Shown: positions 6,898 through 24,056, counted from the stretch's first letter. The stretch: 64,000 nt of DNA from an uncultured Methanosarcinales archaeon (GCA_964572035.1 CAZNDX010000001.1:60437-124436), one strand, 5' to 3'. Notes: generated from the sequence alone by a model not told the origin. Program-made: numbers and translations.

Positions 6898-7257
6898 ATG
6901 GGCAAATACGACCACATTAATTTTAGACCGCCACTTGCTGTAAGAAAAGCGGCGAAAAGAGGGCTGGAACTGCGCAAAAAATTCCACAGAGGCGGAATCA
7001 GCACACAAAAAGCGGGCAAACTAGGAATAGGGTCAGGAATAGAAAGAGCAGTAACACTCGCGAGAGGACTTCACGTCTCACCATCAACAGCAAAAAGAAT
7101 GAACAATTATTTCAACCGCCACCAGAAAGACAGAAAACCAAATTGGGGAAACCCCGCAAAACCCACAAACGGGTACATCGCCTGGCTGTTGTGGGGCGGA
7201 GATCCAGGAAGAGCATGGGCAAGAAAATTAGTCAGGCAAATGAAGGCAGCGGACTAA
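6898..7257 (+). CDS. hypothetical basic protein, translationally coupled to the chaB-like gene
   Basis: 119 aa, lysine/arginine-rich. Its stop TAA overlaps the downstream ATG (TAATG). Confidence 0.45.
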   Translation: MGKYDHINFRPPLAVRKAAKRGLELRKKFHRGGISTQKAGKLGIGSGIERAVTLARGLHVSPSTAKRMNNYFNRHQKDRKPNWGNPAKPTNGYIAWLLWGGDPGRAWARKLVRQMKAAD

Positions 7258-7454
7258 TGCCATACCGCTCAAACACAAAATTGCCGAAACGAATAAGAGA
7301 CAATTTACCACAAGGGGCTCAAACTATTTTTAGAAAAGCGTACAATAACGCATCAAAACAATATCCCACAACAGAAATTCGCAACAAAGTCGCCTGGAGC
7401 GCAGTAAAGCGAGTTTACAAGAAAAAAAGGGAGAAATGGGTTAGAAAAACTTAG
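7257..7454 (+). CDS. chaB: ChaB-family protein
   Basis: MPYRSNTKLPKRIRDNLPQGAQTIFRKAYNNASKQY...KVAWSAVKRVYKKKREKW matches the ChaB consensus (MPY..LP..V...LP.HAQ.IY..AFN.A...KVAW.AVK..Y...KW). The track ORF (7143) is N-terminally over-extended. Confidence 0.75.
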   Translation: MPYRSNTKLPKRIRDNLPQGAQTIFRKAYNNASKQYPTTEIRNKVAWSAVKRVYKKKREKWVRKT

Positions 7455-7500
7455 AAACCCGAAAAATTTATATTACAAACACGGTCTTTTTCTAAAAGGG

Positions 7501-8031
7501 ATGGTACAGGAAGGAATAGATTACAAGATATTACACGATTCGTTATACAAAGCGGCAGACATACTAGAATCCTTTGCTAAATGTGATCTGGATGAAGTGG
7601 CAGATTACGACGATTTACAATCACGAGCTAATTACCTTTTTCTCTCCAAATACGTAAAAGAATCACTGACAATAGTTGGAAACGAACCTGAAAAATGGAA
7701 ATACATCACTGAGCAGTATCTGAAACCTCCAAGCTACAACAATCGAACAAGAAATGAGCTCCCAAAAAAATGCAAAGAGGAAGTTATACAAAGAGATGGA
7801 AACAAATGCAGAGTGTGCGGAAAAGAACAATCACTATCAATACACCACATATTGCCTCATTCATTAAACGGTCTGGACTCCCCTGAAAACTTAATGCAAT
7901 TATGTCAAGAATGCCACAAAAAAGTAAGCAAAAAAGACCCACTTGATATTCTTATAAACGCGGCAATAAAAGGAAAAGCCTCCGGGGGGAATTGCACCCC
8001 CGACCTGCTGATTACAAGTCAGCCGCAATAG
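7501..8031 (+). CDS. HNH endonuclease domain protein
   Basis: The C-terminal region CRVCGK...SIHHILPHSLNGLDSPENLMQLCQECH is a complete HNH motif. The 3' end reads into the tRNA-like element. Confidence 0.7.
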   Translation: MVQEGIDYKILHDSLYKAADILESFAKCDLDEVADYDDLQSRANYLFLSKYVKESLTIVGNEPEKWKYITEQYLKPPSYNNRTRNELPKKCKEEVIQRDGNKCRVCGKEQSLSIHHILPHSLNGLDSPENLMQLCQECHKKVSKKDPLDILINAAIKGKASGGNCTPDLLITSQPQ

Positions 8032-8049
8032 CTACTATGCTACGGAGGC
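7978..8049 (-). pseudogene. degenerate tRNA-like element (anticodon arm reads UGU/Thr-like); possible integration-site remnant
   Basis: The minus strand folds as acceptor GCCUCCG/CGGAGGC (7 bp), anticodon stem GCUGA/UCAGC with loop CUUGUAA, and T-arm GGGGG-UGCAAUU-CCCCC. The D-arm lacks GG and the T-loop has G at position 55, so it is unlikely to be functional. It is followed by T-tract. Confidence 0.4.
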
Positions 8050-8161: not shown

Positions 8162-10945
8162 GTGAGAATGGCAAATAAAGCAATTACATTGACTCCTCTG
8201 ATTTTTATTCTAGTGGTGTTAACGTTCGTTAATGTTCAGGGAGCGGAATTAAGTCAAGAAAAAATTTTCCAGTTTGACCATGCGCCCACCCAACAAGATT
8301 ACGACAATCTCTTAATTCGAGGATGCACGGTAACATATGAACCGAGACACTTAAACCTTCTAATCGCGACATGCACTGAACAAGAAGGCGCGATGACGAT
8401 GCAGCAAACACCGCAGATCGGACAAGTTTGGGAAAATGAAATGTTCTCATCGACATTAAGCGACGGCGCCCAAATAATAGAGGCAATTCAGGCATGGAAT
8501 TCAAGTTATAACGGAAGCGGAATTACAATAGGGATAATGGATACAGGCATTAACACAAGCCACTCCGCGCTGGCAGGACAATTTGACGGCGAAATTGACT
8601 TTTACGATGGAGGAACAGCAGAAGACCTGTGCAACCACGGAACGCCCGTCGCAGGAATACTCGCTTCACTAAACGAAACATATAGGGGAATAGCGCACGG
8701 GGCGAGATTTTATAATTTGAAAACGGGACAAATAGTTACCGGCTCTTGCGGCCACTCCAGTTCGGACATAATAGAAGCAATTGACTACTCAGTTGAAAAT
8801 GGAATAGATATCATTTCAATGTCAATAGGAGGAGCAGTTAGCAACTGCGACCTTTCAATAACTGCGCTTTACGTTAATGAAACAGTATATCAAGATGGAA
8901 TTCCGATAGTAATAGGTGCAGGAAACGGAGGATCAAGCAACAACAGCATATGGTCTCCGGGCTGCGCGCAAAACGCAATAACTGTGGGCTCAGTGAACAA
9001 AGACAGGACTTTGTCAAGTTTTTCAAGCAGAGGACCCGTCAACAATTACAACAAGCCGGATGTTTTGGCTCCCGGAAACAGCATAGCCAGTACGCATCTT
9101 GACGGAACATTCGCGGGAGGATTTAGCGGCACAAGCATGGCAACTCCTTTCGCCGCAGGAGTTGTCGCATTAATTCTTCAGGCAAACCCCGAACTTAACT
9201 GGACACAAATAAAAGAAATTCTCGCCAACAGCTCAACAGATTTGGGATACGCAGAAAATGAACAAGGGGCAGGACTTGTCAACGCCAGCAGGGCAGTTGA
9301 GATCGCTCTAACCGTAAACACGACAAAACCTCCAAAAACAACAGCAACAATCACAAAAACAGACAACACAAACCCGCTCAACATATCAAATTCAACGATA
9401 TTGAAATATCAAATAAATTTCACAATCCAAAACGGAACAGCGTACAACACGATAATTGAGGAAAATTACCCGGCAAATATAATATTCATTTCCTCGACTC
9501 CAATCCCAACGACCGGCGAAAATATCTGGGCAGCAGGCAATCTAACATCGGGACAAACATACCAAATAAACATAACTGTGAATGTAAGCCAAAACCTTCA
9601 AAATGGAACAATCCTCACAAACAAAGTCAACGCGACGTTCACGAATTCCACAAACGGACTGGAAACAAAAGAATACATTAAAAACACGACAATAACAAGG
9701 GACCAAACATTCGAGGATTACCCCGGAATATTGATTCTCGCGCAAAACACAAACGGGCCAACATATTATGACATTTACGACAATCAAACATTCGGCGCGC
9801 CTCAAAATTTTGAAACAAACGGAACACCCGCATGGATATTATCTGAATCAACCGAAACCAGAAACGAAACCGCAATAGCCATACAAAACAGCGACAACGC
9901 GATACACTTCTACATCCACACGCCTCAAACGAACGTAACTGACCCAATTTTATTGACGCAAGACTCGGGAGGCTCTCAAAGAAGATTTGACCTTGAGTAC
10001 GACAAAAACGGAAACGCGCTCATAGTTTTCGCAACAGGGAACAGCACGCCATCATACAAAATATGGGACGGAAACCAATTCATATCAAGCGGAAGCCTCC
10101 CTCAAGACGCATGCACAAGCAACACGGCATGGGTGCAAACCGCGGCATCCCCTGTTGATGAAACAGTGATAGCGATATACTCCGACACAAGCGGAAGATA
10201 TTGCGCCCAAGTTTGGAACGGAAGCCAGTGGGGACAAAGCAAACATTTCGACACCGATGCCGGCACCGCAACAGAAAAATTCAGCCTAGAATTTGAAGAA
10301 ACAAGCGGACACGCGCTCGCAGTATTTGAAAGCCCAACACAAGGAATCGTGAGCTACTGCGAATGGACTGGAATTTGGTGTTCTTCAAACACAGACCTGT
10401 CGGACAGAGGAAGCCAAAACGACTGGGTAAGACTTTCTTCCGAACCAACAAGCGACAGAATAATTCTTGGAACATATCAGAGCGGAAACGCAGATATTGA
10501 TGTAGTTGAATGGAACGGAAGCAGATTTGGAACATGGAAAACAATAGATCCAAGCGTTGAAACAGGAGGCGACAGAATATTTGACGTAAGCTACATAGGA
10601 AACACAGGAAAGGCAATGATAGTTTACACTGACAGCAACCAAAAAGTCCCATCGTTCTCAACATGCGAAAATTCCAACACCTGTTTTGGCGGCACATGGA
10701 GCTCCAACAGCTTAACAACAAGCAGCGGAAATAACTGCGGAGAAAACTCCGATTTGGATTTCGTAAAACTAACTCAAAAACCAAACACAAACCAAATTTT
10801 GCTGACCGGATTAAGCCAAACCCAGCACTATAAGTGCGCCCAAGCCTACAACGGAACAACATGGCAAACATGGACTAGCAATCTCGGAAGCGGAAGCGCA
10901 GATCTTGCGGCGGAAGACATTAGCGCGACATTTGACGCCGACTAA
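8162..10945 (+). CDS. secreted subtilisin-like serine protease (S8) with a long N-glycosylation-sequon-rich C-terminal extension
   Basis: Signal peptide, then the catalytic triad motifs IMDTGI (Asp), CNHGTPVAGI (His), GTSMATPFAAG (Ser). The C-terminal 550 aa are packed with N-x-S/T sequons. Confidence 0.85.
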   Translation: MRMANKAITLTPLIFILVVLTFVNVQGAELSQEKIFQFDHAPTQQDYDNLLIRGCTVTYEPRHLNLLIATCTEQEGAMTMQQTPQIGQVWENEMFSSTLSDGAQIIEAIQAWNSSYNGSGITIGIMDTGINTSHSALAGQFDGEIDFYDGGTAEDLCNHGTPVAGILASLNETYRGIAHGARFYNLKTGQIVTGSCGHSSSDIIEAIDYSVENGIDIISMSIGGAVSNCDLSITALYVNETVYQDGIPIVIGAGNGGSSNNSIWSPGCAQNAITVGSVNKDRTLSSFSSRGPVNNYNKPDVLAPGNSIASTHLDGTFAGGFSGTSMATPFAAGVVALILQANPELNWTQIKEILANSSTDLGYAENEQGAGLVNASRAVEIALTVNTTKPPKTTATITKTDNTNPLNISNSTILKYQINFTIQNGTAYNTIIEENYPANIIFISSTPIPTTGENIWAAGNLTSGQTYQINITVNVSQNLQNGTILTNKVNATFTNSTNGLETKEYIKNTTITRDQTFEDYPGILILAQNTNGPTYYDIYDNQTFGAPQNFETNGTPAWILSESTETRNETAIAIQNSDNAIHFYIHTPQTNVTDPILLTQDSGGSQRRFDLEYDKNGNALIVFATGNSTPSYKIWDGNQFISSGSLPQDACTSNTAWVQTAASPVDETVIAIYSDTSGRYCAQVWNGSQWGQSKHFDTDAGTATEKFSLEFEETSGHALAVFESPTQGIVSYCEWTGIWCSSNTDLSDRGSQNDWVRLSSEPTSDRIILGTYQSGNADIDVVEWNGSRFGTWKTIDPSVETGGDRIFDVSYIGNTGKAMIVYTDSNQKVPSFSTCENSNTCFGGTWSSNSLTTSSGNNCGENSDLDFVKLTQKPNTNQILLTGLSQTQHYKCAQAYNGTTWQTWTSNLGSGSADLAAEDISATFDAD

Positions 10946-11097
10946 TCTTATTACAAAATAAGTATGACGAAGTATTATATACTGGAAGTTCTAGCGAGAA
11001 TAAAATTATAAAAAGAGAACAATTTAAACTACATAAAAAGTAAAAAATAACTACAAAATAAGTAAAATTACTTAAAATGTAGCAAAGAGGTGAATGA

Positions 11098-11475
11098 TTG
11101 AAGCCAGACCAACACTTCGCGCCAATAACCATTTTCAACGGAAAACTAAGCCCTGGCGAGGCGCTCGTAAAACACTTACGGGAACACCACAACCTGCGGT
11201 TCACAGACATCGCTAAACTGCTAAACAGAGACCAAAGAGGAATCTGGTGCGCGTACAAGGCATCGCAAAAAAAAGAGCCAGAACACATTCCTTTTGACCC
11301 GCACCACATATTGTTCCCTGTGAACATGTTTTCTGACCGAAACTTCAGCATACTGGAACACATCGTGATTCATCTGCGGGAAAAATACACCGTAAAAGAA
11401 ATAGCGGAACTTCTAAACAAACACCCAAGCACAATAAGCACTATTCAGACGAGAGCAAGGAGGAAACAGCCTTGA
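11098..11475 (+). CDS. DNA-binding protein with two tandem HTH_10 / sigma-70 region-4-like helix-turn-helix repeats
   Basis: TTG start with AGAGG SD 7 nt upstream. Repeat 1 is LSPGEALVKHLREHHNLRFTDIAKLLNRDQRGIWCAYKAS and repeat 2 is FSILEHIVIHLREKYTVKEIAELLNKHPSTISTIQTRARRK. Its stop overlaps the TTG start of the giant surface protein gene. Confidence 0.55.
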   Translation: MKPDQHFAPITIFNGKLSPGEALVKHLREHHNLRFTDIAKLLNRDQRGIWCAYKASQKKEPEHIPFDPHHILFPVNMFSDRNFSILEHIVIHLREKYTVKEIAELLNKHPSTISTIQTRARRKQP

Positions 11476-14400
11476 GAATTCTGCCAATTTTACTGATATT
11501 GGCACTCGCTACGGCCACAGCAGGAGTTGACATATCAGAAATACTTGGCAAAAAATTGGAAGTAAAAAATGAAGAAAACAAAAATGAGAAACTAATTTCA
11601 GATACATTGTCAAAATTCACAGAACGATTAAAGGATAAAAACGAAATATCCCTAATTGACAAAACCGGAAAAGCGCAAATAAAACAAACATCCAGAAATT
11701 GGACGATCAACGCAACAATTGAAAATCACCCGATCAGAAAAATACAACTCAACAACGTAAGAGGAAAAAACAACACTCTAAAGATAGACACCCCAATAAT
11801 AAAAGACTCAAGACAGTCATACGCGATAGACCCCACGGAAATCAACTTCACCAACGGAGAAATAGAAGTAATCGCGAAAGGGGAGCACCTTTTCAAATGC
11901 CCCGGATGGAACTACACGACGGCAATCTGCGAAGAAACCTGCAAATTGAACAATGACCAAGAAGAAGTATGCCTTGAATGGTTTTACCAAAAAGAAATCA
12001 CTCCCGGACAACCATACACAATAGAGATAGCCCCAAATGACCCCGCGTTTTATGAAACATCCGCATCATCTGACGTGTCCGCAAGCCCCTATAACAGCAC
12101 AACAATACTAATCGCGTTCACCGATGTAACCCAAACCGACGTGGGATTTAAAATAATGGACACAAACGGGACTGAAATAGTAAATACAACACTTGTTGAC
12201 ACAACGGTTGACACAAGATCAAGAGTTGACTCAGCATGGATAAACTCAACACACTTCGTAATATTCTGGGCGGACACGCTTGAAAACGACGGAACATTTC
12301 AAATATGGAACTTCAACGGAACCCACGCGACAAGCGCGACAACTCCAATAGACGCAGACACAAGCATGGGAGGAATAAATGTTGACGTATCAATAGCCAT
12401 GCTAAACGACAGATTCGTAACCTGCTACGCGAACGACGGAGACTCTGACGCCGATTTCAGGGCTTTCGACTTTTTGGGAACACAAGTAGTTGGAGAAACC
12501 GCTGTTGACGGAAACATACTTCCAAGCGCACCCCTCCAAAACCAAATCGACTGCTCAGCGACGAGCAACAACAGATGGACTTATTTCACTTATGACGACG
12601 CTACTGTCAACGACGCGACATATTACATTCAAAGCGAAACAGGCGCAAGCATAGTAGGGGCAGTCGATATAGACACGGACGTCGGAGAGGAAGGACAAGT
12701 GACAGTCATAGGACTTAACGAAAACTTGTCAGGACTTGTTTGGTATGATTCAACAGACCAAGACATAACAATCGCGGGAGTCAACAACTCAGGAACAACA
12801 ATATTCGGACCAACCGACGCAGACACGGAAGCCGGGACTTCAAGCAGAGTCGCGGCGACAGGACTCAGGCAAGACAAAACATCAACCGACCAACTCTTCG
12901 CGTTCGCCTGGTACGACTCAGCAGACACCACAATAAAAGCGGCCGTTTATAGGACAAACGGGACACAATTCACCGCGCCATTCAACGTAACAACAACTCC
13001 AAACAGCACATATCAAATCATAGACATAACCGGAAGAGATAGCATAACAGGACAAGAAATATGCCCCGGCACGTTCATCGTCGCGTTCAGCAACTCAACT
13101 GGAAGAGGGGAATTCCTTGGCTTCTGGGCGAACAGTACACCATGGAACGGAACGTGCGTTGAAAACGAGCCACCCTCAATAAAAAACGCAACAGTTGTTC
13201 CTTCAATAGTGAACATAGGAAACAACGTGTGTTTCATTTTGAACGTTACAGACGCGGACGGTATAACGAACGTCACGGCAATCATAGACCCCCCACTTGG
13301 AGCCAACCAAACTCTGACTTTGAACGAAGGGTTATCATGCAACAGCATCCCAGGGGATAATTTATGGACAAACATTTACTTCCCAATAATTGACGCGACA
13401 CACATTTGGGGAACTGTAAACATAACAGACGGATTAGGGGTAACAACAACTCACGCGATTAATGTTAGTTTCGATGTATTACTCCCTTCGATATCAATTG
13501 AGGGAATTTACCCTCCAACTTTCGCAGCGTATAACGACGGAACAAACTTCAACGTCAGCCTGATTAATGTCTCGGATAACGTTTATACGACACAAACAAT
13601 ACCCGCAAATGTAAACACTCGAACATTCTTCAACTGGACACAGTTCAACTTAACCGACAAACAAATAAAAAACGCAGTTATTATAGTTGAGCATTCATAC
13701 TCGAACTCAACCAATCTCAACATAAGCCTTGACCAATTCAACGGAAGCGAATGGATCAGCAGATGCACACTCAGCGCAAGCCAAACTGACACAACCCACT
13801 TTTGCAACATAACCGTATTTGTAAATTCAACAACATTAAACAATCTTCAACTGAGATTGAACGCGAGCGCGACTTCAAATAGAACACAAAATGTGGACTA
13901 TATTGTTCTCAACCTAACCACAAACACGCCGCCAACAATCAACCACGACATAAACCAAACATACCTTTTGAACCAAACGGCGCTTCTAAGACTCAACGTC
14001 ACAGACCTCGAAAATGACACAATAATCAGAGTGAACGCCACAGTCACATCTCCAAGTGGAGCAACACTATTTTACAACTTCACAAACACAAACGGAACAT
14101 TATGGGACGCGACGCATGCCGACATGAAACTAAAAGGAATCTACAACATAACCATAAGGGCAACAGACAACCAAGGCAGCACAAGAGTAATTCAAACATT
14201 CTTCACAAGAAGAGCGTTTAACGTTGTCGACATAATAGAGCCAAAAGAAGAAGGAGTCCCAACGCTTCAGAATTTCAGCTTCCACAATTACACCGCCCAG
14301 ATAATCTCAAACCAATCAAACATACTTGCCCTATCCATAAACCTCACGGGAGCAGAAGTTAAACAAATTAACATAACTGGATACAACGAAAGCTCCCCAT

Positions 14401-16655
14401 ACAGCATAATTGAACTTAAAGACGATGAAGAAAACACGCCAAAAACAGTATCATTCACAGGATATCAAATAAACCCTGAAGGCCTTGACTTCACGAACGC
14501 GACACTTCTCCTGAACGCGAGCGGAAACCACTCATTATGGAAATGCGCGAACTACAACTTCACGGAAGAAAAATGCTTTGAAGGAAACTGGATAGAACAC
14601 CGAAACATAACAAAAGGCCAACTTTACACCGTAAATATAAACGCAACGGACCCCGCTTTTATCGAAACAACGGCGGCAGGAGACGTCGCAATGGACCCAC
14701 TAAACAACACAATATTCCTAATAGGATTTGTTGACATAGCTCAAACAGAGGTCTCATTTGAAATACTAAACACGAACGGAACAATAATCATTAATACAAC
14801 AGACGTGGACACAACAGTAACAACAAACGCAAGAGTTGACGTCAACTGGATAAACAGCAGCCACTTCGTAATATTCTGGGCAGACACAAACGATAACGAC
14901 GCGACATTCCAAATATTTAGCTTCAACGGAACAGCAACAACAAGCGTCGCAGGACCAATAGATGTCGACACATCAATGGGAAGCGCAAATGTTGACGTAT
15001 CACTCGCAATGCTAGACAACAGATTCGTAACGTGCTACGCGAACGACGCAGACTCTGACGCGGACTTTCAAGCATACAATTTCGCCGGAACACAAGTGGT
15101 TGTTGAAACCGCAGTGGATGGAAATATACAACCAAGCTCGCCGCTTCAAAATCTAATAGACTGCTCGGCAACAAACAACACCAGATGGACATATTTCACA
15201 TTTGATGACTCGACAGTCAACGACGCGACATACTACATTCTCGACAACACAGGAGGAACAATAGTGGGCGCGACAGACATAGACACAGACGTAGGAGAAA
15301 CAGGACAAGTAGCAGTAATTGGACTTAACAACAACCTTTCAGGGCTGGTATGGTATGACAGCACGGACCAAGACATATCAATCGCAGGAGTCAACAATTC
15401 AGGAACAACCACCTTCGGACCAACAGACGTCGACACAGGAGCCGGAACAGAAAGCAGAGTAGCAGGAGCAGCAGTCCGACAAAACAAAACATCAACCGAC
15501 CAACTATTCGCGTTCGCCTGGTGGTCACAAAGTAACGGAACGGTAAAGGCGTCAATTTACAGAACAAACGGAACGCAGTTCACGGCGCCGTTCAACGTAA
15601 GCGCATCGATAAACTCAACATTCCCAATAATAGACATAACCGGAAGGGACAACATAACAGGACAAGAAATATGCCCCGGCGCATTTTTAGTCGCTTTCAG
15701 TAACGGATCAACCGGCCAATTTGTCGGATACTGGGTGAACGGAACACCATGGAATGGAACATGCCCTATTGATTTAATAGCAACTCAACTAAACGCGAGC
15801 GACTTAAACCCTGATGAACTGGAAAACGTAACATTCAACGGAAGCATTTTCAACAACGGAACAAGCACCGCGTTTAATTTTATCTCAGCTATCGTGGATG
15901 GAAACTGCACTACTGGAACAATGATACAAAACAGAACAGTCAATCTCTCGGCGGGACAAAACACAACCCTAAACTTCAGCTGGAGCGCGACACCAGTGGG
16001 ACCGCACAACATAAGCTTTTGCGTCAACTACATAAACAATGTTCTGGAGGACAATTACACCAACAACAACATAACAATAACAATAAACGTCAAAGCGTAC
16101 AACGATTACTTCGGCAATATAACAGGAAATCTGACTCTTGACACAAACACAAACAACACTGAATACGACTGGAGATTCAATGACTCAGGAAACATCATCT
16201 TCACAAACTCACAAGTAACTGTGAACTTCACCGCGCTATACGCACTAGGAAGAAACACAACAGGCGGAATAGCGGTTAACGATTTTCTTGAAGCCGACCA
16301 AGCGCTGAACATGACAGGATTCAACGACAGCATACAAACACTATGGTCGACAAACGCAAGCCAGCCAAGACAAACAACAAACTTCACGGTGCGCGGAAGA
16401 ACAATAGAAAATGTGCCGTACATCAACAGCACAAACACAAGCAACTTCATAACAGGCATTTTGTGGCAATCTGTAAACAGCACAAGCAGAGAATTCAACG
16501 CGACGCAAAAGCAACCATTGCTGTTTGTAACAATGATAAACCGCAACCAAACAGGATTCTACGGAAGATATGATTATGAGGCGCACGTACCTGTGCTTCT
16601 GCGCTCCTATAATAGTACGTCCAACGCTTTGCAATATTTTGTTGAACTGAAATAA
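11472..16655 (+). CDS. giant secreted surface glycoprotein candidate (1727 aa) with a large internal duplication
   Basis: TTG start preceded by AGGAGG. Sec signal MRILPILLILALATATAG. There are more than 150 N-x-S/T sequons and acidic DxDxD motifs. Two modules of about 400 aa are roughly 75% identical. Confidence 0.8.
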   Translation: MRILPILLILALATATAGVDISEILGKKLEVKNEENKNEKLISDTLSKFTERLKDKNEISLIDKTGKAQIKQTSRNWTINATIENHPIRKIQLNNVRGKNNTLKIDTPIIKDSRQSYAIDPTEINFTNGEIEVIAKGEHLFKCPGWNYTTAICEETCKLNNDQEEVCLEWFYQKEITPGQPYTIEIAPNDPAFYETSASSDVSASPYNSTTILIAFTDVTQTDVGFKIMDTNGTEIVNTTLVDTTVDTRSRVDSAWINSTHFVIFWADTLENDGTFQIWNFNGTHATSATTPIDADTSMGGINVDVSIAMLNDRFVTCYANDGDSDADFRAFDFLGTQVVGETAVDGNILPSAPLQNQIDCSATSNNRWTYFTYDDATVNDATYYIQSETGASIVGAVDIDTDVGEEGQVTVIGLNENLSGLVWYDSTDQDITIAGVNNSGTTIFGPTDADTEAGTSSRVAATGLRQDKTSTDQLFAFAWYDSADTTIKAAVYRTNGTQFTAPFNVTTTPNSTYQIIDITGRDSITGQEICPGTFIVAFSNSTGRGEFLGFWANSTPWNGTCVENEPPSIKNATVVPSIVNIGNNVCFILNVTDADGITNVTAIIDPPLGANQTLTLNEGLSCNSIPGDNLWTNIYFPIIDATHIWGTVNITDGLGVTTTHAINVSFDVLLPSISIEGIYPPTFAAYNDGTNFNVSLINVSDNVYTTQTIPANVNTRTFFNWTQFNLTDKQIKNAVIIVEHSYSNSTNLNISLDQFNGSEWISRCTLSASQTDTTHFCNITVFVNSTTLNNLQLRLNASATSNRTQNVDYIVLNLTTNTPPTINHDINQTYLLNQTALLRLNVTDLENDTIIRVNATVTSPSGATLFYNFTNTNGTLWDATHADMKLKGIYNITIRATDNQGSTRVIQTFFTRRAFNVVDIIEPKEEGVPTLQNFSFHNYTAQIISNQSNILALSINLTGAEVKQINITGYNESSPYSIIELKDDEENTPKTVSFTGYQINPEGLDFTNATLLLNASGNHSLWKCANYNFTEEKCFEGNWIEHRNITKGQLYTVNINATDPAFIETTAAGDVAMDPLNNTIFLIGFVDIAQTEVSFEILNTNGTIIINTTDVDTTVTTNARVDVNWINSSHFVIFWADTNDNDATFQIFSFNGTATTSVAGPIDVDTSMGSANVDVSLAMLDNRFVTCYANDADSDADFQAYNFAGTQVVVETAVDGNIQPSSPLQNLIDCSATNNTRWTYFTFDDSTVNDATYYILDNTGGTIVGATDIDTDVGETGQVAVIGLNNNLSGLVWYDSTDQDISIAGVNNSGTTTFGPTDVDTGAGTESRVAGAAVRQNKTSTDQLFAFAWWSQSNGTVKASIYRTNGTQFTAPFNVSASINSTFPIIDITGRDNITGQEICPGAFLVAFSNGSTGQFVGYWVNGTPWNGTCPIDLIATQLNASDLNPDELENVTFNGSIFNNGTSTAFNFISAIVDGNCTTGTMIQNRTVNLSAGQNTTLNFSWSATPVGPHNISFCVNYINNVLEDNYTNNNITITINVKAYNDYFGNITGNLTLDTNTNNTEYDWRFNDSGNIIFTNSQVTVNFTALYALGRNTTGGIAVNDFLEADQALNMTGFNDSIQTLWSTNASQPRQTTNFTVRGRTIENVPYINSTNTSNFITGILWQSVNSTSREFNATQKQPLLFVTMINRNQTGFYGRYDYEAHVPVLLRSYNSTSNALQYFVELK
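11893..13157 (+). repeat. intragenic direct repeat, copy 1 (about 1.26 kb)
   Basis: Protein FKCPGWNYT...TPWNGTC. It shares identical nucleotide runs of at least 20 nt (e.g. cacttcgtaatattctgggc) with copy 2. Confidence 0.7.
14538..15764 (+). repeat. intragenic direct repeat, copy 2 (about 1.23 kb)
   Basis: Protein WKCANYNFT...TPWNGTC. About 75% aa identity to copy 1, offset about 2.6 kb. Confidence 0.7.
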
Positions 16656-16716
16656 AGCGAAATTTTGACTGATTTGGGATGTTTTTTTCGCTGTTTAATT
16701 ATTTTCAATATAAAAG

Positions 16717-16746
16717 ATATTTATCGATGCATGTATCGATAAATAT
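16717..16746. promoter_or_regulatory. inverted repeat ATATTTATCGAT-gcatgt-ATCGATAAATAT (12-bp arms) upstream of the winged-helix regulator gene
   Basis: Perfect arms read from the sequence. It shares a TGCATG core with the second palindrome. Confidence 0.5.
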
Positions 16747-16769
16747 TTAAACAAAACGGCAATAGAAGA

Positions 16770-16783
16770 CCTTGCATGCAAGG
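16770..16783. promoter_or_regulatory. 14-bp perfect palindrome CCTTGCATGCAAGG centred on the regulator start codon
   Basis: Read from the sequence. The ATG of ORF 16776 is the palindrome centre. Confidence 0.5.
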
Positions 16784-17246
16784 GGATCGCGTTCGAGAGA
16801 TAGTACTGAGTATAATCTCTAATTCTCAAACCCCGCTCGAAACCCCAGAAATCCTCGAACGCGTTCTTCAACAAACCAAGACGACAAGAACAATCGTCTT
16901 CAAACGCCTCACAGATTTGCGAGGCGACGGCGAGATATTCGGAGCGCACATCGGTTCCGGAAAAGGAACGTGGATTTGGTGGAACAAAGAACTGCACAAA
17001 GACGAGCAGAAAGCACCAACTTCCGACGACAAAATCGCCTCAAAAGTTCTCGAGACAATCTTCACTTCTCAAACTCCTCTAGAAACTAAGCAAATTGAGA
17101 AAATCGTGCAGGACGCGATCCCAACAACCCGCACGATAATTTTCAAACGCTTGACAGACTTGCGCGGCGACGGCAAAGTCAGAGGAAAACACGTCGGTTC
17201 CGGAAAGGGCGCCTGGATATGGTGGAGGGAAAATGCGACTAGATAA
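16776..17246 (+). CDS. tandem winged-helix DNA-binding protein (two ~70-aa repeats)
   Basis: Repeats SQTPLET.EI...TTRTI(V/I)FKRLTDLRGDG...G.H(I/V)GSGKG(T/A)WIWW occur twice. It lies just upstream of the paralogous secreted-protein genes and overlaps the first by 14 nt. Confidence 0.6.
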   Translation: MQGDRVREIVLSIISNSQTPLETPEILERVLQQTKTTRTIVFKRLTDLRGDGEIFGAHIGSGKGTWIWWNKELHKDEQKAPTSDDKIASKVLETIFTSQTPLETKQIEKIVQDAIPTTRTIIFKRLTDLRGDGKVRGKHVGSGKGAWIWWRENATR

Positions 17247-17916
17247 AAGTCTAGGCAAAGCGCTGATCGCAATCGCAATGGCCCTCATTATGGTAGCTGC
17301 AGCCTTCGCCCAGCCAGTAGGAGCGGGCGTGCAAACCGGAACACCAGTAACCAAGTCATTCATCAGCTCCGGAACAATAGGAGCGCAGGGAGGAAACGCG
17401 ACAACACTCAGCGCAACAACAGAAACGCAAACATTGTCCTGGCAGGGCTTCTACGGAGAAGTATCGGCCAATATGAGCCTGGAGAATTCAAACGGCAGCG
17501 TACTATACAGCTGGACCAACGCGACAAACGGAACAATATATCTCAGCAGAAAGGCAGCTGTCAACTTCGCCAACATAACAGCAGTAAACGTATGTACCGT
17601 CGATGAAAGCATCACAGGAACTGGCAGCGCAAGAGTAAACAACACATTCAGGTCAAGCAACAACACCGAGCTAATAGTTGGAGGAACAGTGATTCCACCT
17701 GGAACAGCGTGCGCGATGAACTCATACGTCAATAACGCAAGCCAGAGTAGCGCGTTCGAAGAAATCATCCTGACAGATGACGGAGTAACAACCATATACG
17801 CGACGCAGATAGAGGAGAACGCTCCAGGATTCGACGGACAGCCACACGACTGGCAGGCGCTAGTGCCATCCAACCTAACAACACTAACGTACTACGTATA
17901 CGTCGAATTCGAATAA
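17233..17916 (+). CDS. Sec-secreted protein, paralog family member A
   Basis: Signal peptide ending AFA-QP. Conserved AQGGNxT...WQGFYG core shared with 18010 and 20358. Sequon-rich. Confidence 0.65.
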   Translation: MRLDKSLGKALIAIAMALIMVAAAFAQPVGAGVQTGTPVTKSFISSGTIGAQGGNATTLSATTETQTLSWQGFYGEVSANMSLENSNGSVLYSWTNATNGTIYLSRKAAVNFANITAVNVCTVDESITGTGSARVNNTFRSSNNTELIVGGTVIPPGTACAMNSYVNNASQSSAFEEIILTDDGVTTIYATQIEENAPGFDGQPHDWQALVPSNLTTLTYYVYVEFE

Positions 17917-18009
17917 GCAAAACGAAATATTTAAATATCAGTATAGTCATATAAAAGGTCACCAGTATACGAAAACATATACTATAGTTGAGGGAAAAGA
18001 GGGATTTCA

Positions 18010-18690
18010 ATGAGAATAAAGACGCTAATTATCGGCATATTGATTTTAGCAGCAATGACAGTAATGGCTTACGCGCAACCACTCGGAGCGAGCACGCAAG
18101 TAGGAACCCCCCAAACAATCACGTCCGGGACTCCTGGCAACGCCACCGCGCAAGGTGGGAACATAACACTAGTCAACCTGACAGGGAGAGGAAGAGTAAA
18201 CGCCTGGCAAGGTTTCTACGGACAAGTAAGCGGAAACTTCTCACTTGAGGATACTACAGGGGACGTCCTTTACGCTTGGGATATCACAAACCACACAGGC
18301 GAAGTGTTCGCAAGCAGATTCTCAACAATCGATTTCACAACAGTCGCAGGAGTAACAACTTGCACAGTAGATGAAGATTTAACAGGGAACGGAAGAGAAC
18401 GAACAAACAGAACGTTCACAAACGCAACTGTAAACTTCACAATAGGAACCGTGAGCATAACTGAGGCGTGCAGAACATACACATACGTAAGCAACGCGAC
18501 TTCCACAAACTGGGAAGAAATAATCATCAACGCAACAGGCGTAACCAGCATTTACGTCGTCAAAATTAACGAATCCACACCAGTGTTTGACGGAACATCC
18601 CAGGACTACCAAATGATTGTGCCTGATAACAGAACGGCCGCGACAACAGTTTACTACTTTTACGCGGAATTTGACTCGACGAGCGAGTAA
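18010..18690 (+). CDS. Sec-secreted protein, paralog family member B
   Basis: Signal peptide ending AYA-QP. AQGGNITLVNLTG...AWQGFYGQVSG aligns with members A and C. Confidence 0.65.
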   Translation: MRIKTLIIGILILAAMTVMAYAQPLGASTQVGTPQTITSGTPGNATAQGGNITLVNLTGRGRVNAWQGFYGQVSGNFSLEDTTGDVLYAWDITNHTGEVFASRFSTIDFTTVAGVTTCTVDEDLTGNGRERTNRTFTNATVNFTIGTVSITEACRTYTYVSNATSTNWEEIIINATGVTSIYVVKINESTPVFDGTSQDYQMIVPDNRTAATTVYYFYAEFDSTSE

Positions 18691-18729
18691 ACAGATACCT
18701 TTTTAATATTCTTTTTTATTTGAATTTTT

Positions 18730-20394
18730 ATGAAAAAGGGATTTTTGCTAATATTTCTCATATTCGCGACAGCGGTCAGCGCTCAAGAAGTATACGTCGC
18801 CAACACAGCATCCTGGGAAAACATTTACAGCGCAGGAATATACAGCGCGCTATTAGGAAAAGAATTCTACTACCTCGTAAACGCGAGACATGCGGAAGCA
18901 TTGACAGCAGAACTGCCAAGAGGAGCAGACGTAACAGTAATCGAATCTGACAGAATCCCCTACGTAAAAAAATACGCAAACCGCTTAACAAACGCCGGAA
19001 TGAAATCACAAACAGTACTAGTTCCCGAGGATGACGCAAATCTTGACCTCGCAAAAAGACTCCCTCAAATAAACAGCTATTATCTAGTAAACCCAGTATT
19101 CGGATATGACGCGATAAGCGCCGCACCCCTCGCGATACAAACAAAATCATATGTGCTATTCGCCACAAAGGAAAACGCCAAAGAACTAGCCGAATTCCTC
19201 AGCAGCAAAACATTGTCAGGACTGACCATAGTTGGAGACGCAGACCAAGAAGTCATCAGCGCAGTCTCCCATCTAAACCCAAAAATAACCAACGAAGGAA
19301 ACAGATTCAAAAACAACATAGCCCTCGCCGAACAATACAGACAAGCAACAAACGCGCAACAAGCAATACTAACAAACGGAGAATTCCTAGAATACGACAT
19401 ATTCACAGCACAAAACCAGCCAATAGTATTCATAGGAAGAGACAGAGTCCCAGAACAATCACTCGAATACCTAAGGTCAGCACCATACAAAACATTCGTA
19501 GTCCTAGGGAAAGACCTCCTAGGAAGCAGCCAGTCAATAAAAACCTCAACACAAAAACCAGTATTCCTCAAATTCGCCAAAGGAACAACAGGACCAAACG
19601 GATTCCAAAACGTAAGAGGACTCGACCTATTCCCAACACCAGTATTCGAAATGCTCCTCTCATTCAAAACAATATACTACAACATCGACCAGCAGAAAGT
19701 AGAAATGGCAGTTCAAAACGAAAAGCCAGCAAGAACATACCTAGAAGCAAACATACTCCTCCAAGAAGGAGACACTCCAATCATAACACTAGGAGGAGAC
19801 GGATTCAGAATAGAAGGAAATACACAGCACACGTTCAGCTACGCCCAAGACTTAAGCGCCTACGCAACAAAAAACGTAACAGCGCAAGTAACAATACCAT
19901 ACGGCGAAAGCGAAGACACAATAGAAAGAGTTCTAACAGCAACACAACAACTAATATTCTTCTCAGAAAAAGACCTATGCAAACTAAGCATAAACGACGC
20001 AGAATACGACGACACAACACAGCGCTTCAAAATAACAGTCAAGTCGGACAAAGAATGCTACGCGCAAGCGACAATGCTAAACCTGACCATTAGCGATGAA
20101 ATCACCAACCCACAAAGCGGAACGGTAAGAATCGATGGAAAAACAACCATTGACGTCAAACAAAGAATGGACGAAGTTGACATCGCCGACAACCCAACAA
20201 TCACTGTAAGCGTCCGCTACGGAAGCGAGCCAAACGCGCTCATCAAAGAAATAACAAAAACAATGCCATTCAAGAGGACAAGCAGCATTAGCATGACGCT
20301 AATAATCGGAATCGCCGCAATAGCCGCAGTCGTATTACTAATAATTTTCATAATACTATGGAAACGAAAAAAACAACGGCGCTACTCGTACTGA
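18730..20394 (+). CDS. cell-envelope protein with putative cell-wall-binding (CW_binding_2-like) repeats and a C-terminal TM anchor plus basic tail
   Basis: Signal peptide. Segments such as DAISAAPLAIQTKSYVLFATKENAKEL resemble CW_binding_2 repeats. C-terminus LIIGIAAIAAVVLLIIFIILWKRKKQRR. Confidence 0.55.
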   Translation: MKKGFLLIFLIFATAVSAQEVYVANTASWENIYSAGIYSALLGKEFYYLVNARHAEALTAELPRGADVTVIESDRIPYVKKYANRLTNAGMKSQTVLVPEDDANLDLAKRLPQINSYYLVNPVFGYDAISAAPLAIQTKSYVLFATKENAKELAEFLSSKTLSGLTIVGDADQEVISAVSHLNPKITNEGNRFKNNIALAEQYRQATNAQQAILTNGEFLEYDIFTAQNQPIVFIGRDRVPEQSLEYLRSAPYKTFVVLGKDLLGSSQSIKTSTQKPVFLKFAKGTTGPNGFQNVRGLDLFPTPVFEMLLSFKTIYYNIDQQKVEMAVQNEKPARTYLEANILLQEGDTPIITLGGDGFRIEGNTQHTFSYAQDLSAYATKNVTAQVTIPYGESEDTIERVLTATQQLIFFSEKDLCKLSINDAEYDDTTQRFKITVKSDKECYAQATMLNLTISDEITNPQSGTVRIDGKTTIDVKQRMDEVDIADNPTITVSVRYGSEPNALIKEITKTMPFKRTSSISMTLIIGIAAIAAVVLLIIFIILWKRKKQRRYSY

Positions 20395-21887
20395 TATTTC
20401 TCGCAGGAATAGCGTTCGCGCAAGTTCCAGGGAGCGCTCCCGCTCAAGGAGGCAACATAACAATGGTGAACCTGAGCGTTTTCAATGAAACTCAGCGCTG
20501 GCAAGGATGGGTAGGAACAGTATTTTTCACAGGACCACTCACGCCACCAAGCGTTCCAGCAATAGGCGGAGAAATAAACTTCACACAAATAAACGTAACA
20601 AGCCCCTGCACCAGCCCAACAGCAGTAAGCGGATTCATACTGTTCAGCAACTCAAGCACAGCGCCAACAGGACTTGTCGCCGGAAATTTAACAATCCTTG
20701 ACCAATTCACAGGAGGAGGACCTGACAAGGGAAGCAGCACATTCACAGTCAACACAACATTCACAATCGGCGCGCCAATCACAAACGTACCAACAGCATA
20801 CCCGTACGTCAACAACGGAAGCCAAAGCACAGTATTCAGAGAAGGCTACCTGAACGACGCAGGAGGAAACATAGTTTTCGCGGTAGAAGTAAACCTGAAC
20901 ACCCAAGGATACAACAGCAGCTTCTTTGACTTCCAAGCGCTTCTCCCAGCAAGAAACAAAACAGCCGCAACTTGGTATTTGACAACAGACCTGCAAATAA
21001 CATGCCCGCCAGTCACCCCTCCATCTGGCGGAGGAGGCGGAAGACCATACTACCCACTATGCACTCCGTCGTGGAACTGCACAGGATGGGGGCCATGCCA
21101 AGACGGACTAATGCTAAGAAACTGCACATCTAACTTCTGCGGAAGAGCAATAGCAAGACCGCCAACAGCAAAAACCTGCGAAGCGATAATTTCACCTGAA
21201 ATGCAAGAACCGGAACTCATCGACAAACTGCACGGGACACAAATACTCGTTCAAGCGCCACAAGAGATAGAAATAGTCGCTGGGCAACTCACTCAAGTAT
21301 TAATCACCATACACAACCCAAATGACTACAGCATAGAAGACCTCAGCGCGACAATATCAACACCGTTCGTCACGCAAACATACACGCCACTCCAAACAAA
21401 ACCAAAGCTCTACCAACTTTTCGGAGTAATACCCAAAATAAAAAACATAGAAGAACACGCGATACGCTCAAGAACAACACCTACCCTAATGCTTCCAAAA
21501 GAAACCATAACACTCCCAGCATACCTTATAGGCCCTCCAATCATTCCGCAAAGAATATCAGCAACCCTCACGATAAAAAGCGGAGACATAACAATATTCA
21601 CACAACCAATAATTATAATAACAGAAGTCAACTCGCTAACACTAATGACTAACAAACAAGGAAGCACTATAACAGCATACATCATTCTAGATAACAGAGA
21701 ACAAAAAAGACAAAAAAAGTCTCTCGAACTGGATTTAAACCAAGGACGCACAACAAAACACGCAGACCTATTTGACATCACAATTGAACAAAACAAAGTC
21801 GCGACATACGCGCAAACATACAGAACAACATTCGATTACGACGCCGTTCGAGCGAGAACAGACAACGCAGTAATAGAGGTACGCTAA
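20358..21887 (+). CDS. Sec-secreted protein, paralog family member C with a Cys-rich linker and long C-terminal domain
   Basis: Signal ending AFA-QV. AQGGNITMVNLS...WQGWVG core. Linker PPSGGGGGRPYYPLCTPSWNCTGWGPCQDG...C..NFC. Overlaps the previous gene by 37 nt. Confidence 0.65.
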   Translation: METKKTTALLVLIFLAGIAFAQVPGSAPAQGGNITMVNLSVFNETQRWQGWVGTVFFTGPLTPPSVPAIGGEINFTQINVTSPCTSPTAVSGFILFSNSSTAPTGLVAGNLTILDQFTGGGPDKGSSTFTVNTTFTIGAPITNVPTAYPYVNNGSQSTVFREGYLNDAGGNIVFAVEVNLNTQGYNSSFFDFQALLPARNKTAATWYLTTDLQITCPPVTPPSGGGGGRPYYPLCTPSWNCTGWGPCQDGLMLRNCTSNFCGRAIARPPTAKTCEAIISPEMQEPELIDKLHGTQILVQAPQEIEIVAGQLTQVLITIHNPNDYSIEDLSATISTPFVTQTYTPLQTKPKLYQLFGVIPKIKNIEEHAIRSRTTPTLMLPKETITLPAYLIGPPIIPQRISATLTIKSGDITIFTQPIIIITEVNSLTLMTNKQGSTITAYIILDNREQKRQKKSLELDLNQGRTTKHADLFDITIEQNKVATYAQTYRTTFDYDAVRARTDNAVIEVR

Positions 21888-22009
21888 TGTACGTATTCGG
21901 AATAGACATACCAATAACACTGATTTTTCTATTCATTCTAGCCACGCAAATAATCATCATTATAGAGCTACTAATTTTAAGGAGGAAACATGATCGTCGC
22001 AGGAATTAA
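21887..22009 (+). CDS. hydrophobic micro-protein (40 aa) MYVFGIDIPITLIFLFILATQIIIIIELLILRRKHDRRRN
   Basis: ATG overlaps the TAA of the upstream gene (TAATG). Single TM helix plus basic tail. Too short for the ORF track. Paralogous to the next micro-ORF. Confidence 0.35.
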   Translation: MYVFGIDIPITLIFLFILATQIIIIIELLILRRKHDRRRN

Positions 22010-22088
22010 CCTCCCAATAACTGAAGCGATAATAATTCTGCAAACAGGCATCGCGCTATACTTTCTTTGGAAGATACTAAAGAATTAG
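21990..22088 (+). CDS. hydrophobic micro-protein (32 aa) MIVAGINLPITEAIIILQTGIALYFLWKILKN
   Basis: GGAGG 6 nt upstream of the ATG. N-terminus (M-x-V-x-GI-D/N-I/L-PIT) matches the preceding micro-ORF. Confidence 0.35.
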   Translation: MIVAGINLPITEAIIILQTGIALYFLWKILKN

Positions 22089-22116: not shown

Positions 22117-22581
22117 GTGAAGAATATGAAAGCCGAAGACTACAAACAGCTGCAAGCAAAACACAAAGACCTTCCTTCATTTGAGACACTAGACCAAGAA
22201 TTCTCAATATCACAGATTGACGCTGAAACACACCTGCTAATTGAAATTAAAAAGAAAATGGCGGAAAAACTAGAGCCGACAATAGACTTCCTCGCCGGAC
22301 TATTGAACCCAGAAGGGCTCACAAACATGTTTGAATGCAGAAACATGACAAAAAAAGACCAACAATCAATACTACAAACATACCAACACCTGATGGAGCA
22401 CTACCGGTACCTCCTTGAAACGGACATAATCTCAACTGATAACGCGCACGCCGACGCCATAGCAAGCATAACAAAAGCATGGCTCTCAAACAAAAAACCC
22501 CTTCTTGAGATAATAGGAAAAACACGCTGCAGCTGGCAGAAAAACATCGAGCCAAAAGAAATACTGGAGTACCTTGGATGA
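22117..22581 (+). CDS. hypothetical protein
   Basis: 154 aa. 4-nt overlap with adk suggests co-translation. No recognisable motif. Confidence 0.4.
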   Translation: MKNMKAEDYKQLQAKHKDLPSFETLDQEFSISQIDAETHLLIEIKKKMAEKLEPTIDFLAGLLNPEGLTNMFECRNMTKKDQQSILQTYQHLMEHYRYLLETDIISTDNAHADAIASITKAWLSNKKPLLEIIGKTRCSWQKNIEPKEILEYLG

Positions 22582-23108: not shown

Positions 23109-24056
23109 TCACGCGGGTTCAAATAACTGGCGTATAAATTCCGTCGCGTAGCATCCCTTCGGAAGCATAAACTCAATTGTAAATTTCTTCTTATCTGGGA
23201 AAAACTCATCATCAGACAACTCAGAAACCCTAATACCTGCGGCCTCAGCATAAACATTTCTCTGCGAACCTTCGGAAGAAACTTCCGGAAACTCCTTAAT
23301 AACAAAATCACGAGGAGTAATGCCTTCTTCCCTCAAAATGTCGCGAATAGAATCATCAACAACCGTATCAAAACCGACAAGCGGCAAAACATCCTTCTTC
23401 GACTTCAGCGCAGCATTATTCCAAAGCTCGCTCTGATAAGAATGAACAAACAACAACAAAAGCTTCCTCTGAACAAGACGCAAAGCGCCAATAAAATCAT
23501 TTTTGTCAACAAAAATTTTCATCTTAGGCGCAAGAGAAGGGTTATCATCCATAATCATCAACGCGGCGCTCTTAAAATCACGCTTGACAATCGCGCGGCC
23601 AATTGACGCATTTCTTTTTGAAAAACGCTGTTCGCCAAACAAATTGACAAATTTGGTTTTAACCTCGGGAATCGAGTCAACATTTCTCACAACCAAACAG
23701 AATTTATTTCCAATCAATTCGCCAGTATGAACGGGCTCCTTTCTCCTGCCCAAAAACTCAGCGGACATCATAGAATCATCAAGAGCGTCAATGATTTCCT
23801 TTTTCAAACCCTTAACAGAGCAAACTTGCGATGTGACGCCCTGACGGTCCTTATTTCCCGCGCAGGAAATATCACCTATGTTAACGCGCCACAACCGGGC
23901 AAGTCGCGAAACAGCCTCATAAGTAGTAAGGTCACGCTTCTTCAATCTAAAAATTGAGAACTTGCCATCCCCCTCATCCTTGACATCGCTGATTTCAGTA
24001 ACAGCGAAATCCTCCGGAACATGCTTAATCACATACATAACTCCATTCCGCCCCAT
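23109..24056 (-). CDS. truD: tRNA pseudouridine synthase TruD/Pus7-like, paralog 1 (315 aa)
   Basis: N-terminal VIKHVPEDFAVTEI and motif II CAGNKDRQGVTSQVCSV (the catalytic Asp context GxKDxxxxT.Q). Confidence 0.7.
   Translation of the reverse strand: MGRNGVMYVIKHVPEDFAVTEISDVKDEGDGKFSIFRLKKRDLTTYEAVSRLARLWRVNIGDISCAGNKDRQGVTSQVCSVKGLKKEIIDALDDSMMSAEFLGRRKEPVHTGELIGNKFCLVVRNVDSIPEVKTKFVNLFGEQRFSKRNASIGRAIVKRDFKSAALMIMDDNPSLAPKMKIFVDKNDFIGALRLVQRKLLLLFVHSYQSELWNNAALKSKKDVLPLVGFDTVVDDSIRDILREEGITPRDFVIKEFPEVSSEGSQRNVYAEAAGIRVSELSDDEFFPDKKKFTIEFMLPKGCYATEFIRQLFEPA

Follow-up and report, generated by a model that had tools for sequence, protein, structure and literature searches.

A candidate surface-display gene cluster built around a shared β-rich domain and a triple-CWB2 membrane anchor in archaea

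Introduction

WxL clusters encode a small secreted protein that consists of the domain only, a large protein with a C-terminal copy of it, and a partner with immunoglobulin (Ig)-like domains and a C-terminal transmembrane (TM) helix (PMC10599100). In the CWB2 proteins of Clostridioides difficile (PF04122; the high-molecular-weight (HMW) subunit of SlpA, Cwp6 and Cwp8), CWB2 itself anchors, binds PSII and is fused to the displayed domain. Three CWB2 repeats together form the module that holds the S-layer and the Cwp proteins of that organism on the cell. We describe here an archaeal gene cluster that is comparable with both systems. It occupies positions 8162-22088 of a 64,000-nucleotide stretch of DNA (hereafter the window; GCA_964572035.1, CAZNDX010000001.1:60437-124436) recorded as coming from an uncultured Methanosarcinales archaeon, and it centres on a domain of about 190-200 residues, called Dom here, which is present in four copies: at the C-terminus of a giant protein, as the whole of two mature small proteins (A and B) and at the N-terminus of their paralog C. 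The cluster probably builds a surface complex or fibre. The form that we favour, and to which we give about as much belief as doubt, is a Sec-exported, N-glycosylated, non-covalent multi-subunit surface display complex around the β-rich Dom domain.

As a kind of system, this one is known from Firmicutes; the archaeal version differs in that its domain has no detectable relative, its CWB2 module stands in a new topology, and a description of the Dom family or the cluster was not found in the open-access literature. The WxL/Csc clusters of Enterococcus and Lactobacillus, in which WxLIP is the DUF916-DUF3324-TM protein, have a gene set that is alike by layout only, and their domain is a different one: it has two Trp-x-Leu motifs and the Pfam WxL profile, which matches neither A nor B nor any of 36 Dom family members. 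Furthermore, the Dom host is an archaeon without peptidoglycan, its anchor has an extra triple-CWB2 module, and no LPXTG component is present. The Cwp system of C. difficile is echoed in that many proteins use one shared anchoring module, while the docking chemistry is unrelated. CWB2 is here the membrane-distal head of a TM protein, the displayed proteins carry Dom and not CWB2, and there is no known secondary wall polymer.

Among archaea, the filaments of the TasA superfamily (Sulfolobus threads, Pyrobaculum bundling pili and Pyrodictium cannulae) are likewise exported through Sec and signal peptidase I (SPase I), are N-glycosylated, occur as several paralogs per genome and have no dedicated ATPase or chaperone (PMC12518558). 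Dom, on the other hand, gave no match to the jelly-roll fold of that superfamily (TasA, AbpA, CanA and the thread subunit), no signal peptidase gene lies in the neighbourhood, and neither the trio of one large and two small proteins nor the CWB2 anchor has a counterpart in those systems. SlaA/SlaB S-layers share with the Dom cluster a TM-anchored stalk encoded beside glycosylated secreted subunits; Dom subunits differ in being about 200 residues long, multi-copy and regulated, and no sequence or fold relation was detected.

Woesearchaeota and related lineages are small-genome archaea that are abundant and uncultured, and their surfaces and partner contacts are largely uncharacterised; we know of no DPANN S-layer or adhesin that has been determined experimentally. 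The cluster offers a concrete gene set for such work, with a large unnamed family, fixed partner genes and two dedicated regulators, and its triple-CWB2 module, a wall anchor in Firmicutes that in this archaeon heads a membrane protein, represents an unexpected domain transfer.

The Dom domain and the proteins that carry it

All genes of the block lie on the + strand, with the boundaries given in a preliminary description of the region, and they overlap by 4, 14, 37, 1 and 20 nucleotides (nt) in order along it. The layout is compact, with a helix-turn-helix (HTH) gene before the large Dom protein, a winged-helix-like gene before two small ones, and the anchor gene before C. Signal peptides were judged by hydropathy and A-x-A motifs, and a Sec-type hydrophobic N-terminus is present on all six large non-regulatory proteins, namely an S8 protease, the giant, A, B, the CWB2 anchor and C. 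Five of these also exceed the number of N-glycosylation sequons expected from their composition roughly two- to threefold (S8 29 against 16, giant 101 against 37, A 10 against 3.8, B 12 against 3.5, C 13 against 5.0). The CWB2 anchor is the exception: it is depleted (2 against 4.1 expected), unlike all other secreted proteins of the cluster.

Proteins A (17233-17916, 227 residues) and B (18010-18690, 226 residues) are 47% identical, and C (20358-21887, 509 residues) is paralogous to both over its first 210 residues (29% identity to A, E 1e-14). The preliminary description had recognised these three as paralogs with a shared AQGGNxT...WQGFYG core; the paralogy stands, and the count of three has to be raised to four copies of the domain, the fourth being in the giant. 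Over its last 200 residues, the giant matches the Dom profile with an hhalign probability of 97% (E 6e-11). When this segment was used as a phmmer query, 93 open reading frames (ORFs) were matched in related loci; in the strongest matches it stands at the extreme C-terminus of proteins of 494-3302 residues, some of which were also found by the hidden Markov model (HMM) of the small Dom proteins.

Two subtypes can be distinguished. The S subtype is a stand-alone protein of about 225-300 residues, in which a signal peptide is followed by a conserved P behind the cleavage site, a linker that is variable and rich in S, T and G, the GGN.T motif and then the core, whereas the L subtype forms the C-terminal end of large proteins and lacks the N-terminal extension. 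Protein A shows the S arrangement in full, from signal peptide through variable linker, GGN.T motif and Dom core to a conserved C-terminal YY.Y.EF (Dom HMM E 4e-85). In C, the signal peptide is followed by a Dom with a shortened N-terminal segment, a Cys-rich knot (CxxxWxCxxWxxC) and a β-rich C-terminal region of 280 residues; this last region is present in 22 loci, and distant loci carry a different N-terminal domain. The N-termini of Dom proteins are Sec-type, with A-x-A before a mature Q-P. An AlphaFold2 (AF2) model of Dom is β-rich and of medium confidence (predicted local distance difference test (pLDDT) 82.5), and about 40 residues at its N-terminus (25-65) are unstructured.

The Dom profile was searched against 1.84 billion representative sequences, with family size counted in clusters at 50% identity, and the family has at least 1590 members at E <= 1e-3, of which 499 reach E <= 1e-30. 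Among the best 150 of the 1590, most are 225-260 residues long and the long ones have Dom at the extreme C-terminus. The long proteins carry β-helix, LamG or Ig domains at their N-terminus, and such varied heads are as expected of a shared anchoring module. Pfam gave no match for A, B or any of the 36 family members, NCBIfam gave none either, and comparison with the PDB by sequence and by structure returned no solved relative of Dom; a PDB sequence match to NiaR (E 0.039) was rejected as a chance match. Relatives are named only 'hypothetical protein', and the named relatives of the paralogs come from metagenome-assembled genomes (MAGs) of Woesearchaeota. The viral contigs of IMG/VR contain no Dom relatives. 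For neither the paralogs nor the giant was a homolog of known, unrelated function found. As a separate observation, three long Dom proteins (P0091, P0106 and P0159) weakly match the autopeptidase domain S59 of Nup98 type (E 4e-6 to 3e-4, below the Pfam cutoff) at some 130 residues before Dom; if this match is real, autoproteolysis could set loose a Dom fragment with its N-terminal extension free.

The giant gene (11472-16655) encodes 1727 residues, in the order signal peptide, duplicated module of about 450 residues, CARDB and C-terminal Dom of the L subtype. The two modules (11808-13151 and 14451-15761) are 59% identical. CARDB (15771-16076, E 4e-7) spans residues 1434-1535 with 30.5 bits against a cutoff of 22.7 and finds the solved structures 2kl6 (5e-4) and 3idu (2e-3), and Dom follows at 16047-16652 according to hhalign. 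The duplication, the sequon excess and an overlap of its start with the stop of the preceding HTH gene bear out the earlier view of a repeat-bearing surface glycoprotein coupled to a regulator.

The CWB2 anchor

The anchor gene (18730-20394), which overlaps the gene for C by 37 nt, encodes 554 residues, and the product had been described as a cell-wall-binding-repeat protein with a C-terminal membrane anchor, a reading that is upheld here. After the signal peptide, the AF2 model (pLDDT 87.4) shows three α/β units (about residues 20-280), two β-sandwiches (284-513), a TM helix (522-553) and a basic tail. The protein itself scores 21.0 bits against PF04122, below the family cutoff of 24.9, while two homologs have a precomputed PF04122 match and the profile of the anchor family matches C. 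difficile Cwp6 at 4.8e-9. Its three tandem α/β repeats superpose on solved CWB2 trimodules, and its nearest structural relatives are S-layer anchoring modules. The model thus points to a complete triple-CWB2 module that would be held in a membrane-distal position on a TM-anchored protein. A variation on the cytoplasmic side was seen in the distant locus L009 (12530-14314), where the TM helix of the CWB2 anchor is followed by a zinc ribbon (Pfam Zn_ribbon_3, 1e-4) in place of the short basic tail of the window's anchor.

Conservation of the cluster

One genome per species was scanned, and ORFs were called in the returned loci and searched with HMMs. The module is present in 76 loci, most of them from MAGs of Woesearchaeota, Nanoarchaeota or Pacearchaeota. 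A Methanoperedenaceae MAG and a cultured methanogen, Methanogenium cariaci JCM 10550, carry it as well. It is thus not specific to episymbionts, and host attachment, which the preliminary description had suggested for such islands in small-genome archaea, is no more than one candidate role. In M. cariaci, the genes for a small Dom protein, the anchor, a protein with CARDB and Dom-L, and a C-type protein are consecutive, and the presence of the module there (WP_062396813.1 and neighbours) makes experiments possible without DPANN cultures. Among the carriers of the module are many GTDB representative MAGs with the title 'uncultured Methanosarcinales archaeon' (L005, L008, L012, L014 and others), and L005 has the layout of the window from the giant through the micro-ORFs; these record titles are probably off from the real taxonomy.

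In relatives whose Dom proteins are 51-63% identical, the whole gene order is retained, housekeeping flank included, and the block is co-oriented and tightly packed, so that the proposed synteny of the block in relatives holds. Across the wider set, smaller units recur. A large Dom-L gene is followed by two small Dom-S genes in 22 of 28 cases, an HTH gene by a Dom gene within 150 nt for 24 of the 29 HTH family members, and a CWB2 anchor gene by a C-type gene, directly or past a gene of family c6, in 16 of 32. More distant loci frequently have a different order, in which a winged helix-turn-helix (wHTH) gene of ArsR type precedes two Dom-S genes, a c1 gene and sometimes a c7 gene. Within pairs of small Dom proteins, the first member best-matches another first in 30 of 31 and the second another second in 26 of 31; A and B both resemble first-position members of these ancient pairs. 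Families c1, c6 and c7 and the ArsR-type wHTH were not found in the window, and the idea that c1 (about 310 residues) and c6 (228 residues) are divergent Dom proteins was rejected on an hhalign probability below 10%.

The conserved neighbours of Dom loci also speak to the kinds of machinery that could be involved, and an ATPase, a secretin, a sortase and a signal peptidase are all absent from them. Traits of type IV pilins or archaellins were not seen, in that the N-termini are not class III and no ATPase or platform gene is among the families recurring in 80 loci. Chaperone-usher families are likewise absent among the conserved neighbours, and archaea do not have the outer membrane that an usher needs.

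The preliminary description took the block for a self-contained system, and this is correct in part: core sub-modules recur in the 76 loci, while the conserved core does not include the S8 protease, the micro-ORFs and the tandem winged-helix protein, all of which are limited to the closest relatives. The two hydrophobic micro-proteins that it listed are nevertheless conserved in 6-8 related loci, with a GI[DN][IL]P motif. Micro-ORF m1 (21887-22009, 40 residues, single TM) has orthologs in six related loci (L001-L006), five of which have ordered calls and show it in the same place, and retains MY.F..(D/E)(I/V)P despite divergence. Micro-ORF m2 (21990-22088, 32 residues, single TM) has AGGAGG just upstream and orthologs in 8 loci, L007 and L008 included.

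Regulators and candidate operators

Two HTH proteins are encoded directly upstream of Dom genes, each beside its own conserved repeat or palindrome. The first, of 125 residues (11098-11475), matches HTH_38 (E 9e-8; 32.2 bits against a cutoff of 27), HTH_23 (26.8 against 24.6) and Sigma70_r4 (1e-4), as well as region 4 models of extracytoplasmic function (ECF)-sigma-like type, and the alignment of its family has the motif IPLSIF..LS.LE.IV.YLK...EIA.LL.RD.RTIW twice per protein. On these matches, it is predicted to be a cytoplasmic regulator with two tandem LuxR/sigma-70-region-4-like HTH repeats. The tandem HTH architecture and the sigma region 4 likeness had been proposed before; the HTH_10 assignment made with them had to be replaced, as HTH_38 and HTH_23 were matched instead. 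The stop codon of this gene and the TTG start codon of the giant gene overlap in TTGA.

The 152-nt spacer upstream of the HTH gene contains CTACAWAAWAAGTAA four times, three direct and one inverted, in an operator-like repeat array (10951-11082, strand not assigned) that precedes the HTH-giant operon. The window holds 6 matches to CTACAWAAWAAGTAA against 1.2 expected, a number that none of 100 shuffles reached, and 4 of the 6 are in this spacer. Its 70 gene-proximal nt are near-identical in L003, whose A and B orthologs are only 63% identical. The repeats are a candidate operator of the HTH-giant operon.

The second protein, of 156 residues (16776-17246), consists of two 60-residue repeats, is cytoplasmic, and overlaps gene A by 14 nt. 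It has no Pfam, NCBIfam or PDB match, and 'winged helix' is for this protein a reading of its sequence. It is lineage-specific, being found only in L001, L003 and L004; in more distant loci, an ArsR-type wHTH gene of about 200 residues stands upstream of the small-Dom pair. A 30-nt palindrome (16717-16746, strand not assigned; ATATTTATCGATGCA/TGTATCGATAAATAT) overlaps the TATA-like TTTAAA 30 nt upstream of the winged-helix-like gene, and its half-site ATTTATCGAT/ATCGATAAAT is kept in L001, L003 and L004, where the arms stand 12 or 24 nt further apart. The window has three exact matches to TTTATCGAT, and two of them are at the palindrome, which is likely to serve as an operator. Palindromes had been said to bracket this regulator; one upstream is what we find, and at the downstream end the gene runs into gene A. 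Finally, a run of seven T (16682-16688, + strand) follows the giant gene and a T-rich spacer of 39 nt follows B, and since archaeal termination takes place at oligo-T, the first is a likely terminator and the second may be one. A scan for bacterial promoters and terminators was uninformative, the host being an archaeon.

How the complex may be assembled

In the surface display complex that we favour, Dom would act as the docking and assembly domain. The TM-anchored protein, with its three CWB2 units and two Ig-like domains, would be the platform, holding the small Dom subunits at the surface, perhaps via their glycans. The small Dom proteins would in turn be docking or spacer subunits that hold one large Dom-tailed cargo, which in this cluster would be the propeller/CARDB giant as a functional head for binding, and the two HTH proteins would switch the two operons on or off via their repeat arrays. 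The sharing of one domain among the proteins, the fold of the anchor, the pairing of regulators with Dom genes and the conserved gene order all support this arrangement.

Several points weigh against it. First of all, the contact between Dom and the anchor is one that we infer, and the anchor is present in only 36 of 80 loci, though contig ends cut many of them. Second, a CWB2 module is placed in an archaeon without a known wall polymer. Third, Dom has no similarity to the WxL domain, so that the analogy with WxL clusters is one of layout alone. Fourth, the Dom model is of medium confidence, and its 40 unstructured N-terminal residues fit strand donation as well. Finally, several genomes have multiple loci, with up to seven small Dom genes, and a variable surface-protein family therefore fits as well as a fixed complex does.

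Strand donation leads to a different structure, in which the small Dom proteins polymerise head to tail after Sec export, each inserting its GGN-I-T-x-V-N-L segment into the next subunit, with the giant as a FimH-like tip and C or the CWB2 anchor as the base. Archaeal threads, bundling pili and cannulae combine a Sec/SPase I signal, N-glycosylation and an N-terminal segment that is disordered in monomer models (PMC12518558), and the small Dom proteins have the same three features, the disordered segment being about 40 residues long in an AF2 model of moderate pLDDT. Dom-L lacks the extension, in that its matches mostly begin near profile position 57 and that of the giant, by hhalign, at column 51. 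The trio of one large and two small proteins resembles the tip, shaft and base of pilin operons, and known archaeal donor-strand systems need no chaperone or ATPase. The extension itself, however, is weakly conserved over most of its length: in the family at large, conservation is limited to GGN.T and the P that follows the cleavage site, and the rest is variable. In addition, the full extension is internal in some long proteins, leaving no free donor strand there, and no fold match to TasA-like subunits was found. We thus consider such a fibre possible but unlikely. The wider proposal built on it, that Dom proteins are subunits of a new class of Sec-dependent archaeal fibre with a fold unrelated to type IV pilins and TasA, capped by the giant as an adhesin tip and rooted on the triple-CWB2 module, is in our view similarly doubtful; if true, this fibre would serve Woesearchaeota and Nanoarchaeota as their main organelle of contact, and it would be present in a cultured methanogen as well.

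The same proteins could alternatively form an S-layer, with A and B as lattice subunits, the CWB2-Ig-Ig-TM protein as the stalk, similarly to SlaB under SlaA or the C. difficile HMW subunit, and the giant Dom proteins as accessories. The structural kinship of the anchor with S-layer anchoring modules, the syntenic location in the core genome and the predicted secretion and heavy glycosylation of the proteins are all consistent with this, the T-rich stretch after B hints at a higher output of A and B than of the downstream genes, and no S-layer has been determined for any DPANN archaeon (bioRxiv 10.1101/2023.10.27.564410). The candidates proposed for DPANN S-layers are, on the other hand, multi-Ig proteins of about 1000 residues (NEQ300 and MJ1_0160; bioRxiv 10.1101/2023.10.27.564410) and not 200-residue proteins. 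It would also be unusual for a constitutive lattice to have dedicated on/off regulators, several loci in a genome and as many as seven small Dom paralogs in one of them, and the Dom family is patchy in methanogens. An S-layer role is thus quite unlikely.

A role as an extracellular nutrient-scavenging complex, with protein degradation by the S8 protease and capture of peptides or glycans by the Dom and propeller proteins, we regard as highly improbable. The protease gene lies directly upstream, the modules of its tail are shared with giant surface proteins at Dom loci elsewhere, and small-genome archaea generally rely on external nutrients. The WxL/Csc analogy would fit too, as the Csc/WxL clusters of Lactobacillus reportedly have a proposed role in polysaccharide use. 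The protease, however, is outside the conserved core, being upstream of the module only in L003 among the loci that extend far enough, neither the module nor its immediate neighbourhood encodes a transporter, and the heads of large Dom proteins are adhesin-like (LamG, β-helix, Ig and CARDB) and not hydrolytic. That there is no system at all, with unrelated surface genes as chance neighbours and a motif derived from recent local duplication, is hardly credible: A and B are closer to each other than to distant members, as a recent duplication would have it, and the S8, winged-helix and micro-ORF genes are lineage-specific, but the same pairings in conserved order recur in 76 loci of many lineages, and the genes are overlapping or near-contiguous with regulators and their conserved predicted operators alongside.

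The S8 protease and the genomic neighbourhood

The first gene of the block (8162-10945, 927 residues) encodes the protease. Its catalytic domain matches Pfam S8 over residues 118-371 (E 1.6e-49; 169.2 bits against a cutoff of 21.8), the best PDB match is the Thermococcus subtilisin-like protease 3afg (E 3.6e-43), and the D, H and S motifs of the triad are legible in the translation as GIMDTGI, NHGTPVAG and SGTSMATP. Together with the signal-peptide-like N-terminus, this predicts a standard secreted subtilase with intact triad motifs, and the earlier account of a secreted S8 protease with a sequon-rich tail is upheld. The tail, of 550 residues, has an Ig-like module followed by a region of repeats that reads as a propeller; BLASTP found no significant similarity between it and the giant, whose own propeller-like look is equally judged by eye from the protein sequence. 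Modules of the tail recur in the giant Dom proteins of L007 and L008 and in a giant L036 protein that has no Dom match. In L007 and L008, S8 seemed to be fused to giant Dom proteins; this was rejected, as the profile had been built from a truncated ortholog covering the tail and matched the tail only, and no evidence of an S8 catalytic domain fused to Dom was found.

Two genes stand just before that of the protease, a ChaB-like ORF (7143-7454, Pfam 2e-17) and a gene for an HNH endonuclease (7501-8031), the latter with its 3' end overlapping a tRNA-Thr(tgt) on the opposite strand (7977-8049). This region (7143-8049) may be the remnant of an element integrated at the tRNA gene. Downstream, an ORF of 154 residues (22117-22581) with no family match and a predicted cytoplasmic product starts 28 nt past m2 and overlaps the adenylate kinase (ADK) gene by 4 nt; it is kept at the same position in L001-L004 and could belong to the surface cluster or to the ADK operon. 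At 2.6 kb downstream there is a GT2 glycosyltransferase gene (24689-25927, - strand) with chitin-synthase and GT21-like profile matches, which only close relatives have in a syntenic position. That the enzyme might make a surface glycan to which the CWB2 module could bind is pure speculation.

The wider context is archaeal housekeeping (GatD/E, two TruD genes, ADK, CDC48, SMC, RtcB and the CCA enzyme). The two genes of the TruD pseudouridine synthase family lie at 23109-24056 (315 residues, matched in three stretches) and 40044-41306 (420 residues, full-length). The block had been called an island, and as a compositionally distinct or mobile unit this does not hold: its GC content is like that of the rest of the window, its codon usage correlates with that of the other + strand genes at r = 0.96, and the housekeeping flank (ADK, TruD, GT2, DUF2238 and GatE) is likewise collinear in relatives. 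A foreign origin on codon usage was also considered and rejected, because the low correlation (r = 0.36) that the block shows with the remainder of the window is an effect of strand and disappears when + strand genes only are compared. Over the whole window (1-64000), the codon usage of + and - strand genes is anticorrelated (r = -0.25), and third codon positions read on the + DNA strand have A 0.43, T 0.11, G 0.14-0.16 and C 0.29-0.32 whichever strand the gene is on. It seems that a single replichore, with a very strong mutational bias, takes in the entire window.

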